From Aquificota bacterium (lineage in GTDB: Bacteria; Thermosulfidibacterota; Thermosulfidibacteria; Thermosulfidibacterales; B14-G1): a stretch of 64,000 nt of DNA. Shown piece after piece: positions 28,257 to 30,904 of this stretch. The stretch's first letter is position 1. Every line of letters starts with the position of its first letter. Location of the stretch: the NCBI GenBank assembly GCA_015486015.1, contig WFSL01000036.1, forward strand, positions 30,934 through 94,933, written 5' to 3'. Under the pieces are notes generated by a model that was not told the DNA's origin, made no database searches, and saw only the letters and a list, made by a program, of their open reading frames with translations. The translations under genes were made by a program, and so were the position numbers.

Positions 28257-29708
28257 ATGATGGTAGGTATACTCTCGTATGGTGCTTATGTTCCTCGCTA
28301 TAGGCTATCCAGAAAGGCCATCTTTGATGCTGTAGGCTGGTTTGCCCCTGCCACCCGGGGGTATGCAAGGGGGGAGAAGGCCGTTGCCAATTATGACGAG
28401 GACAGTCTCTCCATGGGAGTGGAGGCTGCCAGAGCTTGCCTGCGATCTAAAGAAAGCGTTTATGCGCTCTACTTTGCCAGCACCACGCCCCCTTACATGG
28501 AGAGGCAGAACTCGGCTATTGTGGCTCATGCACTGAACCTGCCTGACTCTGTGGAAGCCGTAGACCTGACAGGTTCTATGAAGGCAGGCACAGCAGCGCT
28601 TTTGGCGGCCTTTGACTCAGTCAAGAGTGGACGCGCTCCTGCTGCGATGGCTGTGGCCGCAGATGCCCGGCTGGCTAAGGTAGCCTCTGCCCAGGAGCAC
28701 CTCTTTGGGGACGCCGCTGCGGCCTTATTAGTGGGGAATGGGGATCCTTTGGCCAGCCTCCTGGGCAGCTACACGGTGAGTTGCGACTTCGTGGATTATC
28801 GGAGGAGTACCAAGAACGACTTTGGCAAGGCATGGGAAGAAAGGTGGATCAGGGATATAGGGTATGGAAGGCTCATCCAAGAGGCCCTCTCTGGACTTCT
28901 GAAACAGCAGGGTATCTCTCCCAAACTGTTAGCCAAAGTAGCATTCCCCTGTCCTTACTCTGCCGTAAGGAAAAAGATTGCTGCAAGAATGGGGATCGAC
29001 CCTACCAAGGTCCAGGAGAATGTACACCAGCTCATTGGGGATGCGGGGGTGGCCATGCCCATGCTCCTATTGGTCTCTGCGTTGGAAGAATCGAAGCCTG
29101 GTGATCTCATAGCCGTCGCCAGTTATGGCAACGGGGCCCAGGCCCTCCTTCTGAAGGTAGAGAAGGGGATAGGAGTCTATAAAAAGGGGCTTTGGCAGAG
29201 GGCCCTCTCCAGACGTGCCGAAATGTCTTACGAGAAGTACCTGGCCTTCAAGGAGCTGGTACCCCTGGAGTTGGGCATCAGGGGAGAGGAGGTGGCCCCC
29301 ACAGCCCTTTCGGTGCTCTGGAGGGAGAGAAAGGCCGTTTTGGGCCTTGTGGGTTCCCGGTGCAAGAGGTGTGGCACGCCCGTCTATCCACCCCAGAGGG
29401 TGTGCGTAAACCCACAATGTAAAGCCATGGACGAAATGGAAGACTATCCCTTTGCCGAGAGGAAGGGAAAACTCTTTACCTTTACGGCAGACAATCTGGC
29501 CTTCTCCATGAACCCGCCAGCCCTGTATGGTGTGGTGGACTTTGAAGGTGGAGGTAGATACTGGTTCGACCTCACAGACTGCGCCCTGGAAGAACTCAAG
29601 GTGGGCATGGAGGTAAAGATGACCTTCAGGAGAAAATACGTGGATAAGAACCGTTCCATATTTGGCTACTTCTGGAAGGCCGTACCTGTCATTGAGGGGG
29701 GTGAGTGA
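28257..29708 (+). CDS. HMG-CoA synthase-like (thiolase-fold) domain fused to Zn-ribbon/OB-fold DUF35 domain
   Basis: The N-terminal roughly 320 aa can be aligned with HMGCS (GILSYGAYVPRY, EDSLSMGVEAA, SYGNGA). The C-terminal roughly 130 aa has CKRCGTPVYPPQRVCVNPQC followed by an OB-fold-like tail, as in DUF35. Confidence 0.75.
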   Translation: MMVGILSYGAYVPRYRLSRKAIFDAVGWFAPATRGYARGEKAVANYDEDSLSMGVEAARACLRSKESVYALYFASTTPPYMERQNSAIVAHALNLPDSVEAVDLTGSMKAGTAALLAAFDSVKSGRAPAAMAVAADARLAKVASAQEHLFGDAAAALLVGNGDPLASLLGSYTVSCDFVDYRRSTKNDFGKAWEERWIRDIGYGRLIQEALSGLLKQQGISPKLLAKVAFPCPYSAVRKKIAARMGIDPTKVQENVHQLIGDAGVAMPMLLLVSALEESKPGDLIAVASYGNGAQALLLKVEKGIGVYKKGLWQRALSRRAEMSYEKYLAFKELVPLELGIRGEEVAPTALSVLWRERKAVLGLVGSRCKRCGTPVYPPQRVCVNPQCKAMDEMEDYPFAERKGKLFTFTADNLAFSMNPPALYGVVDFEGGGRYWFDLTDCALEELKVGMEVKMTFRRKYVDKNRSIFGYFWKAVPVIEGGE

Positions 29709-30904
29709 TGGCAACGGGGATAAGGGATAAGGTGGCCATAGTGGGTATGGGATGTACCAAATTTGGGGAGCTATGGGACAAGGGGGCGGAGGATCTCATG
29801 GTGGAGGCCTATAAGGAGGCCATCGAGGATGCCGGGATTGAGCCCAAGGAGATTCAGGCGGCCTGGCTGGCCACCTGTTACGAGGAGATCAATATAGGAA
29901 AAAGTGCCATGCCCCTTTCTACCACCCTGAAGCTTCCTTTCATACCTGTAACCCGGGTAGAGAACCTGTGTGCTTCGGGTACCGAGGCCTTCAGGGCGGC
30001 ATGCTATGCCGTGGCCTCTGGGGCCTACGACATGGTGTTGGCCCTGGGAGTGGAGAAGCTGAAGGACACAGGTTACGGCGGATTGCCCGAGCTCTCCTTC
30101 ACCTTCGGTACCAGAAACAGGATGATCTTTCCCAATGTTACAGCCCCAGGGGCCTTTGCCATGATGGCCACCAGGTATTTTGCCAGGTACGGGATAGATC
30201 CTGAGGAGGGCAAAAGGACCCTGGCTAGGATCTCTGTGAAGAGCCACCACAATGGGGCCCTCAATCCCAAGGCCCACCTGAGGCGGGAGATCACTATAGA
30301 GGATGTCCTCAAGGCCCCTATAGTGGCCTGGCCTCTGGGCTTATACGATTGCTGCGGTGTAAGCGACGGTGCAGCGGCCGCCATCATCACCACGCCGGAG
30401 ATCGCCAAGGGATTGCGTCAGGATTTCGTGAGGGTGAAGGCCCTTCAGGTGGCAGTCACATCGGGGGAGGAGCTCATGTATCAGGCTTGGGACGGGACCC
30501 ACGTGGAGTCCACGGTGAGGGCAGCGGTGAGGGCCTATGAGGAGGCAGGGATTAAGAATCCTCGAGAGGAGATCGGGGTGATGGAAATCCATGATTGCTT
30601 CTCCATCACCGAATTGGTCACCTATGAGGATCTGGGGATTTCTCCCAGGGGAAAGGCGAGCGACGATGTAAACAACGGTTTCTTTGATCTGGATGGGCAG
30701 ATTCCCTGCCAGCCCGATGGTGGCCTGAAGTGTTTTGGCCATCCCATAGGGGCCTCGGGTCTGCGCATGATGTACGAGGTGTACAAACAGCTTCAAGGCA
30801 AGGCAGGGGAGAGGCAGGTGAAGGATCCCAAGCTGGGGCTCACCCATAACCTGGGAGGATTCCCACCCCATAGTGTGGTGAGTGTGGCCATAGTGGGTGA
30901 ATGA
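29705..30904 (+). CDS. SCP-x/archaeal-type thiolase (acetyl-CoA C-acyltransferase family)
   Basis: 399 aa with ENLCASGTEAF (nucleophilic Cys), EIHDCF and GGLKCFGHPIGASG. Its start overlaps the upstream stop (GTGATG). Confidence 0.85.
   Translation: MMATGIRDKVAIVGMGCTKFGELWDKGAEDLMVEAYKEAIEDAGIEPKEIQAAWLATCYEEINIGKSAMPLSTTLKLPFIPVTRVENLCASGTEAFRAACYAVASGAYDMVLALGVEKLKDTGYGGLPELSFTFGTRNRMIFPNVTAPGAFAMMATRYFARYGIDPEEGKRTLARISVKSHHNGALNPKAHLRREITIEDVLKAPIVAWPLGLYDCCGVSDGAAAAIITTPEIAKGLRQDFVRVKALQVAVTSGEELMYQAWDGTHVESTVRAAVRAYEEAGIKNPREEIGVMEIHDCFSITELVTYEDLGISPRGKASDDVNNGFFDLDGQIPCQPDGGLKCFGHPIGASGLRMMYEVYKQLQGKAGERQVKDPKLGLTHNLGGFPPHSVVSVAIVGE

Follow-up and report, generated by a model that had tools for sequence, protein, structure and literature searches.

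The window analyzed in this study is a stretch of 64,000 nucleotides (contig WFSL01000036.1 of assembly GCA_015486015.1, positions 30,934 to 94,933) deposited as Aquificota bacterium. It encodes a fusion protein, composed of a domain similar to hydroxymethylglutaryl-CoA synthase (HMGCS) and a DUF35 module, directly followed by a thiolase. An earlier note on this DNA, made from the sequence alone, had placed the two open reading frames (ORFs) at 28257–29708 and 29705–30904, where we indeed find them, and had read the HMGCS-like domain as a pseudoenzyme scaffold next to an intact thiolase. The features of this pair are listed below, with the HMGCS residues numbered as in 6esq_I, the HMGCS subunit of the complex from Methanothermococcus thermolithotrophicus.

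28257–29708, + strand: fusion protein (HMGCS-like domain, linker and DUF35), ORF of 483 aa
28257–29258, + strand: HMGCS-like thiolase-fold domain, aa 1–334 (NF003274; phmmer matches to PhlA and 6esq_I)
28482–28484, + strand: codon of T76 (in ASTT, aa 74–77), at the position of catalytic Glu82 (HMMER, MAFFT)
28578–28580, + strand: codon of M108 (in GSMKAGT, aa 106–112), at the position of nucleophilic Cys114 (HMMER, MAFFT)
28947–28949, + strand: codon of P231 (in AFPCPY, aa 229–234), at the position of catalytic His238 (HMMER, MAFFT)
29040–29042, + strand: codon of D262 (in LIGDAG), at the position of Asn270, the fourth tetrad residue (HMMER, MAFFT)
29361–29420, + strand: zinc ribbon CKRCGTPVYPPQRVCVNPQC, aa 369–388, with Cys369, Cys372, Cys383 and Cys388 (PF12172)
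29454–29690, + strand: OB-fold domain of DUF35, aa 400–478 (PF01796, E 3.4e-10)
29705–30904, + strand: SCP2/archaeal-type thiolase (NF004810), likely start at ATG 29708, 398 aa
29969–29971, + strand: thiolase nucleophile Cys89 (in NLCASG, from aa 87), invariant in 73/73 partner thiolases
30590–30601, + strand: thiolase HDCF motif, His296 to Phe299, invariant in 73/73
30737–30745, + strand: thiolase GHP motif, Gly345 to Pro347 (within CFGHP, from aa 343), invariant in 73/73

Architecture of the fusion protein and loss of the HMGCS tetrad

The gene callers used for two public assemblies of the same DNA start the fusion protein at the second ATG (28260; 482 aa), which is likely the genuine start. 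The N-terminal part matches the NCBIfam model NF003274 (E 1.5e-58) over profile positions 1–343 of 347. The scores stay below the curated cut-offs for HMGCS (NF003274, 198.5 bits versus 244; TIGR00748, 135.5 versus 353; TIGR01835, 43 versus 360). Both by score and by its tetrad positions (see below), the protein is not a bona fide archaeal-type HMG-CoA synthase. With Pfam, the only signals in the N-terminal two thirds are those of KAS-III and thiolase families and stay below threshold. The C-terminal part contains the domains zf-ChsH2 (aa 362–389) and OB_ChsH2_C (aa 400–458), which together form the DUF35 module.

The best solved sequence match of residues 3–338 is PhlA, the HMGCS-like subunit of the PhlACB complex (E 1.9e-28 and 1.8e-27, phmmer), followed by 6esq_I (E 1.5e-25) and by MucA of the MucABC complex (9vbo_A, E 7e-16). 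The DUF35 part is best matched by the archaeal DUF35 subunit 6esq_E, of which residues 6–130 align to residues 355–480 of the fusion (E 1.3e-15); the match to PhlB is weaker (E 7e-5). Since both halves are covered, the fusion consists of a complete HMGCS-like domain, a linker of about 20 residues and a complete DUF35. The Pfam, NF003274 and 6esq_E alignments agree on the fusion that the earlier note had described, and a single polypeptide of 483 aa thus holds both the HMGS-like domain and DUF35. An AlphaFold2 monomer model, built with 32 homologues, is compact and two-domain (pLDDT 92.1, pTM 0.93). Foldseek found PhlA (E about 1e-29 to 1e-30), 6esq_I and MucA as its best matches, with a target-normalized TM-score of 0.91 and an rmsd of 2.2 Å against 6esq_I.

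HMGCS enzymes have a catalytic Glu-Cys-His-Asn tetrad, published as E82/C114/H238/N270 (Liao et al., Nat Commun 2026, PMC12960953; the PhlACB 2018 structure paper, PMC6392133, likewise names Glu82 and Cys114). In the HMMER alignment, from which the 6esq_I residues were numbered, this tetrad falls on T76, M108, P231 and D262 of the fusion, and the respective codons were checked in the window. The by-eye assignments of the earlier note, with Glu, Cys and His all replaced, were right, and the fourth residue, Asn, is lost too. All motifs it quoted are present (ASTT, GSMKAGT, AFPCPY and the zinc ribbon in the fusion; NLCASG, HDCF and CFGHP in the thiolase). We also made a MAFFT L-INS-i alignment containing two real HMGCS (6esq_I and the PF01154/PF08540-type HMGCS from Candidatus (Ca.) Methanoliparum contig L003), the window protein, PhlA, and the fused homologues from Variovorax, Azoarcus, Rhodococcus and Methanoliparum. 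The E, C, H and N of both real HMGCS share single columns, at which all fused proteins lack E, C and H; PhlA also carries an Asp at the position of Asn270. Inspecting the Glu, Cys and His columns of the two formal alignments, a check that the earlier note had suggested, did not restore the triad.

The same columns were counted in 120 close homologues and 150 divergent representatives of 50%-identity clusters. The Glu column holds Thr in 114/120 close homologues and in 123/151 divergent sequences, and Glu in none. The Cys column is variable (L/T/V/I/M/Q/R and others), with Cys in 0/270 homologues, and the His column holds His in one of 271 sequences. Loss of the catalytic Glu, Cys and His is a family-wide trait. 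With the tetrad absent, HMG-CoA cannot be formed by the known mechanism. The HMGCS-like domain is otherwise highly conserved, with many positions that are invariant throughout the family, and Thr76 itself is kept in more than 80%. All four zinc-ribbon cysteines are found in 120/120 close homologues and in 137–143 of 151 divergent ones.

Partner thiolase and distribution of the gene pair

The likely start codon of the thiolase (ATG 29708) overlaps the stop codon of the fusion gene as TGATG, behind a GAGGGGGG stretch. The protein is a member of NF004810 (PRK06157), which it matches with residues 2–398 over profile positions 1–396 of 400 at 657.7 bits (cut-off 403). Its best solved relatives are 7yvy_A (E 1.1e-57) and 6esq_A (E 1.4e-57), virtually tied, and BbsB (E 2.2e-47). 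Archaeal acetyl-CoA acetyltransferases (ACAT) and SCP2 thiolases match over the full length, and PhlC and MucB only over the C-terminal ~125 residues. A thiolase-fold HMGCS-like module, a DUF35 zinc ribbon with OB fold and a SCP2/archaeal-type thiolase are thus encoded together.

The earlier note had regarded the Cys/His/Cys motifs of the thiolase as intact. This stands for Cys89, HDCF and GHP, all three found in 73/73 partner thiolases, but not for the Cys of CFGHP, which is not catalytic. In SCP2-type thiolases such as this one, the catalytic residues are Cys89, both the His and the Cys of the HDCF motif, and the GHP histidine. Across the fetched loci, the fusion protein is less conserved (median identity 52%) than the thiolase (73%). 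At 90% identity the cluster of the thiolase counts 21 members, and the fusion is a singleton. Both observations fit a catalytic subunit that is paired with a structural one. The thiolase is at least 90% identical to 20 other database proteins, one of them labeled ‘Aquificota bacterium’ (RLD97407.1).

A word-indexed search retrieved 5244 relatives of the fusion protein. The best 120 are all fused proteins of ~480 aa with 50–79% identity, and the hosts named among them are Syntrophales, Thermodesulfobacteriota, Dehalococcoidia, Bacillota, Ca. Methanoliparum and Ca. Methanolliviera. When 50%-identity cluster representatives were searched exhaustively, 3581 clusters were found at E ≤ 1e-3, of which 581 also reached E ≤ 1e-30, and nearly all of the top 150 representatives have the fused length. 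A genome scan built on an alignment of 15 closer sequences, with one genome per species, found relatives in both bacteria and archaea, in no fewer than 589 species genomes. Full-length fused homologues with 32–42% identity also occur in cultured hosts (Sphingomonas, Variovorax, Azoarcus sp. KH32C, Sphingobium, Novosphingobium, Rhodococcus, Mycobacterium avium and haloarchaea). These are annotated as ‘OB-fold domain-containing protein’ or ‘KAS III C-terminal domain-containing protein’ and adjoin an ‘acetyl-CoA acetyltransferase’ gene. The proteobacterial ones are 38–42% identical to the window fusion over 98–99% of its length.

The pairing with the thiolase is strict. The 79 loci, from archaea and several bacterial phyla, contain 80 fusion genes. 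A thiolase gene follows 72 of these directly, and the other eight lie at contig ends. The downstream thiolases in the fetched loci are 66–78% identical to that of the window. Two fusion-thiolase pairs are present on a single contig in two cases (L015, L087), and four metagenome-assembled genomes contain two loci each (L019 and L080, L069 and L088, L034 and L073, L027 and L066). By analogy with the archaeal ketothiolase (KT)/DUF35 pairs, for which this has been reported, the doubling suggests substrate-specific paralogues.

Three natural fusions are longer. Protein P0122 is extended by two SCP2 domains (722 aa), P0123 by an SDR and an SCP2 domain (911 aa), and P0139 by an SDR domain (800 aa). 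These extra domains are those of MFE-2/SCPx-type beta-oxidation and therefore link the family to it.

In two Ca. Methanoliparum loci (L003 and L004, positions 1894–3195 and 8001–10654), we observed a PF01154/PF08540-type HMGCS gene with intact E/C/H/N adjoining a UbiD gene. This intact HMGCS lies 5 kb upstream of the inactive fusion-thiolase pair, which stands alone among housekeeping genes. With a separate, intact HMGCS at hand, the mevalonate-pathway synthase of this archaeon is not the fused protein, whatever the public name of the latter says.

Gene neighborhood

The pair is embedded in a cluster with the same orientation, flanked on both sides by unrelated housekeeping genes.

23426–24442, + strand: CCG protein (upstream trio)
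24445–25830, + strand: GlcD-like FAD oxidoreductase (upstream trio)
25815–27014, + strand: 4Fe-4S/CCG protein, GlcF/HdrD-like (upstream trio)
27066–28247, + strand: acyl-CoA dehydrogenase with ACAD N, M and C domains (Pfam); 9 nt separate it from the fusion gene
30897–32225, + strand: family III CoA-transferase, subunit 1 (PF02515, E 8e-103)
32235–33560, + strand: family III CoA-transferase, subunit 2 (PF02515, E 2e-87)

The acyl-CoA dehydrogenase (ACAD) best matches the NCBIfam models for the acryloyl-CoA reductase AcrC and for glutaryl-CoA dehydrogenase, all below cut-off. The two CoA-transferase subunits are 29% identical to each other. The closest solved relatives of subunit 1 are formyl-CoA-transferase-like proteins and SUGCT (E about 1e-52), and the nearest characterized relatives of both subunits act on dicarboxylates (SUGCT, mesaconate/glutarate transferases and YfdE), again with scores below the cut-offs. 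As these dicarboxylate-type matches of the CoA-transferases and the ACAD are all sub-threshold, a dicarboxylate substrate is a low-confidence guess. A scan of the cluster for promoters and terminators gave sites no more frequent than in shuffled sequence.

The gene order ACAD, fusion, thiolase and two CoA-transferases recurs in the loci L006 and L007. The closest relative, whose fusion protein is 69% identical, keeps this order and lacks the FAD/CCG trio. The GC content is 0.41–0.46 over positions 18000–26000 (pilin-like, TPR, DUF2400, CCG and FAD-oxidase genes) and 0.50–0.57 over 26000–34000 (ACAD through the CoA-transferases). Given the absence of the trio from the closest relative's cluster, together with this contrast in GC content, the two halves may differ in history, and the link of the trio (23426–27014) to the thiolase module is uncertain. 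A second, independent association was seen in Dehalococcoidia bacterium W265 (L045, DUEX01000006.1), in which a CCG/FAD oxidase/Fer4-CCG trio (55, 65 and 50% identity) and an ACAD adjoin a fusion-thiolase pair on the opposite strand.

Three further ORFs of the window resemble genes of acyl-CoA metabolism. A MaoC-like dehydratase ORF (3438–3908, + strand), a weak match, follows the enolase gene at a distance of 25 kb from the cluster. It is 26–40% identical to MaoC subunits of related loci and is the sole hydratase-like gene in the window. An ORF of 101 aa right after the second CoA-transferase gene (33636–33941, + strand) is similar to long-chain fatty-acid-CoA ligases over no more than their final ~70 residues (profile positions ~460–540) and appears to be what is left of a truncated acyl-CoA ligase gene. 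An intact acyl-CoA ligase gene is present at 40521–42197 (− strand).

The neighbors of the fusion gene were counted by BLAST in the 46 loci for which at least 8 kb of flanking sequence is available. These raw counts, which have no genome-wide baseline, are 21 loci with an ACAD, 20 with an SDR, 19 with an acyl-CoA ligase, 14 with a MaoC hydratase, 12 with an enoyl-CoA hydratase and 12 with a family III CoA-transferase. At least one of these six is present in 37/46 loci. The Variovorax locus, for instance, has the order LysR, SDR, MaoC, fusion, thiolase, ACAD, CoA-transferase and a solute-binding protein of the tripartite tricarboxylate transporter (TTT) family. Together with the SDR/SCP2 fusions, these neighbors suggest that the pair carries out thiolysis in beta-oxidation-like routes whose acids are activated by a CoA-transferase or a ligase.

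Comparison with known complexes and proposed role

The same architecture was described by Liao et al. (PMC12960953), who solved the MucABC complex and mined 1030 bacterial HMGS+ACAT+DUF35 loci, 1001 of them without secondary-metabolism neighbors. Their representative from P. fluorescens, ‘featuring a fused HMGS-DUF35 protein’, is devoid of the tetrad and has an ACAT in which the catalytic Cys, HDxF and GHx are all retained. This PfACAT/HMGS-DUF35 complex formed neither HMG-CoA nor acetoacetyl-CoA from acetyl-CoA and cleaved acetoacetyl-CoA; the H294Y exchange in the HDxF motif nearly abolished the cleavage (PMC12960953). The window pair shares the fusion of the HMGS-like domain to DUF35, the loss of the E-C-H-N tetrad, an adjacent thiolase with Cys, HDxF (His294 there, His296 in the window) and GHx, and the absence of polyketide synthase (PKS) or nonribosomal peptide synthetase (NRPS) neighbors. 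It differs in its origin from an uncultured bacterium and in a cluster that adds the ACAD, the two family III CoA-transferases and the GlcD/CCG trio. The two are likened by architecture and motifs, not by measured orthology.

As the same architecture, residue losses and intact thiolase have been published, the pseudoenzyme scaffold idea of the earlier note is correct and already in print. It matches both PfACAT/HMGS-DUF35 and PhlA (PMC6392133), from which complex formation and inactivity of the HMGS-like domain would be expected here by homology. A full-text literature search gave no paper on the HMGS-DUF35 fusion besides that of Liao et al., and a search seeded with the Variovorax homologue gave no Pseudomonas entry among the matches listed. 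The architecture is not unusual or new but belongs to a very large family that is already described.

DUF35 links the HMGS-like subunit to the thiolase in every solved complex, and the interfacial CoA chamber persists even in inactive versions. The archaeal thiolase/HMGCS/DUF35 complex (6ESQ) resembles the window proteins in its thiolase (E 1.4e-57, with identical motifs), HMGCS (E 1.5e-25, TM-score 0.91) and DUF35 (E 1.3e-15) subunits. It differs in having the HMGCS tetrad, a separate DUF35 subunit and a mevalonate instead of a catabolic context. PhlACB from P. protegens and MucABC from S. macacae (PDB 5M3K/5MG5, 9SKH and 9VBO/9VBT) are Friedel-Crafts acyltransferases, which share with the window an Asp in place of the tetrad Asn and an inactive HMGS-like subunit, needed in these complexes only for assembly. 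PhlA is devoid of the Cys (Gly115) and the Glu (Cys83), and catalysis is performed by PhlC residues only; PhlA and PhlB, themselves non-catalytic, have to be present for the dodecamer to fold and be active (PMC6392133). In contrast to the window pair, their thiolase subunits have lost the HDxF histidine and use acceptors other than CoA, their DUF35 forms a subunit of its own that carries an N-terminal tail, and the genes lie in PKS or NRPS clusters.

BbsAB, ChsH2/Ltp2 and the archaeal KT/DUF35 pairs also combine a SCP2-type thiolase with HDxF and a zinc-ribbon/OB partner, and these pairs occur in clusters with family III CoA-transferases and ACADs, but they have no HMGS-like domain. The analogy with BbsAB drawn in the earlier note is weak, as neither equivalog cut-off is reached (BbsA, NF053627, 18.4 bits versus 250; BbsB, NF053628, 167 versus 750). 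A Bbs-like operon for toluene-type degradation of fumarate adducts was rejected on these scores and on the lack of BbsCD or BbsH equivalents in the cluster; the CoA-transferases are, moreover, nearer to the SUGCT/formyl-CoA-transferase type than to BbsEF.

Most probably, the two polypeptides form a thiolase/HMGCS/DUF35 assembly in which the thiolase alone is catalytic and which performs the C–C-cleaving step of a beta-oxidation-like cluster. This reading builds on the architecture, the residue losses, the conserved thiolase motifs, the strict gene pairing and the fold, all observed here. By homology with the assayed and solved relatives, the thiolase would cleave a 3-oxoacyl-CoA by CoA-dependent thiolysis, with Cys89 as nucleophile, assisted by the HDCF loop (through its His and Cys) and the GHP histidine, and the assembly would make no HMG-CoA. 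The fusion protein would contribute the non-catalytic parts in one chain. Its zinc-ribbon/OB module presumably bridges thiolase and HMGCS-like dimers, as in the solved complexes, and the HMGCS-like domain, devoid of Glu, Cys, His and Asn, would act as a scaffold and probably as one wall of a shared CoA/acyl chamber. For the pathway and the substrate class, the gene context suggests that the two family III CoA-transferase subunits would activate a carboxylic acid, possibly a dicarboxylate, from a CoA donor and that the ACAD would introduce the 2,3 double bond. The hydratase and the 3-hydroxyacyl-CoA dehydrogenase would be encoded outside the cluster.

Several points weigh against this reading. 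Neither a hydratase nor a 3-hydroxyacyl-CoA dehydrogenase was found in the cluster or in the 64-kb window, apart from the MaoC-like ORF mentioned above, and the neighbor counts have no baseline to be set against. Thiolases are reversible, and the physiological direction stays a proposal. The strong conservation of the HMGCS-like domain, with Thr76 and many invariant residues, would also be possible for a ligand-binding or regulatory role. Finally, the placement in the P. fluorescens type relies on architecture and motifs, and the proteobacterial fused homologues are just 38–42% identical.

The reversibility also leads to a biosynthetic alternative, in which the pair would work in the direction of Claisen condensation as the ketothiolase of a CoA-based, fatty-acid-synthase-like chain elongation system that is independent of acyl carrier protein. 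MaoC pairs and SDR genes beside many family members are in line with this, as are the archaeal KT/DUF35 pairs, which have been proposed to act in synthesis with (R)-specific enzymes, namely an (R)-specific reductase and a MaoC dehydratase (bioRxiv 10.1101/2024.07.05.601840). However, the ACAD and CoA-transferase neighbors in the window are catabolic, no enoyl reductase is found there, ACADs accompany the pair at 21 of the 46 well-flanked loci, and the assayed homologue gave no detectable acetoacetyl-CoA from acetyl-CoA (PMC12960953). We therefore consider this direction unlikely. It is more doubtful still that the HMGCS-like domain remains an enzyme with a rewired site, performing a second condensation or acyl transfer coupled to the thiolase. 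The domain is well conserved and confidently folded, the interfacial chamber is kept in related complexes, and Cys232, a candidate nucleophile adjoining the former His position, is found in 111/120 close homologues. Yet Cys232 occurs in just 18/151 divergent family members and was rejected as a general catalytic residue, and the column of the former nucleophile is highly variable, which argues against catalytic constraint. The family-invariant residues (DED47–49, D103, E147, R183 and R196) are, in a pairwise alignment, apparently common to real HMGCS and so represent features of the fold or the CoA site. The assayed fused homologue, furthermore, formed neither HMG-CoA nor acetoacetyl-CoA (PMC12960953).

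A third possibility, a Friedel-Crafts C-acyltransferase of the PhlACB/MucABC type acting on a small-molecule acceptor in secondary metabolism, is very improbable, even though the HMGCS-like domain is matched best by PhlA in both sequence and fold and has the same Asp at the Asn position. Against it stands the HDCF motif, which is kept in the thiolase and invariant in the family but was lost in the PhlACB/MucABC acyltransferases (PMC12960953). PhlC and MucB match only the C-terminal ~125 residues of the thiolase, in contrast to archaeal ACAT and SCP2 thiolases, which match along its full length, and the DUF35 part is nearer to the archaeal subunit than to PhlB. The cluster, moreover, contains ACAD, CoA-transferase and FAD/FeS oxidoreductase genes but no PKS or NRPS genes, and the rest of the window is housekeeping. 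That the fusion gene is a decaying, non-functional relic or an artefact of assembly or gene calling can practically be discounted. The catalytic residues are lost, and Liao et al. regarded the P. fluorescens complex as a possible evolutionary intermediate without a defined pathway (PMC12960953). However, the ORF is intact over 483 aa, an identical protein is present on two independent assemblies, and relatives form 3581 50%-identity clusters (581 at the stricter threshold) in at least 589 species genomes, including those of isolates. This conservation, with the strict thiolase pairing, the many invariant positions and the high-confidence predicted fold, excludes a relic. The published view of an evolutionary intermediate without a pathway also fits poorly with the beta-oxidation contexts seen here.

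The assembly in which the thiolase alone would be catalytic is thus an ordinary case, as the HMGS-DUF35 plus thiolase architecture is widespread and was described and assayed in the 2026 paper. The finding itself opens no new question, and its practical value is that of an annotation correction: public sources name such genes ‘hydroxymethylglutaryl-CoA synthase’, which should not count as evidence of a mevalonate pathway. The comparative data extend the 2026 paper to some degree. They connect the fused family with beta-oxidation-type clusters and with natural SDR/SCP2 fusions, which suggests a defined metabolic role, and they name cultured carriers in which the substrate could be found (Variovorax, Azoarcus KH32C and Rhodococcus). 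Tentatively, and with slightly more doubt than conviction, we propose that the family may be an ancient, strongly selected enzyme of primary metabolism, a thiolase devoted to (R)-specific, MFE-2-like beta-oxidation, or to the reverse process, in anaerobic bacteria and in archaea, including the alkane-oxidizing Methanoliparum and Methanolliviera. The emptied HMGCS pocket would then be an acyl/CoA chamber that sets substrate specificity, and the pathway to which the pair contributes in the window would be primed by the CoA-transferases and use a (di)carboxylic or hydroxy acid.

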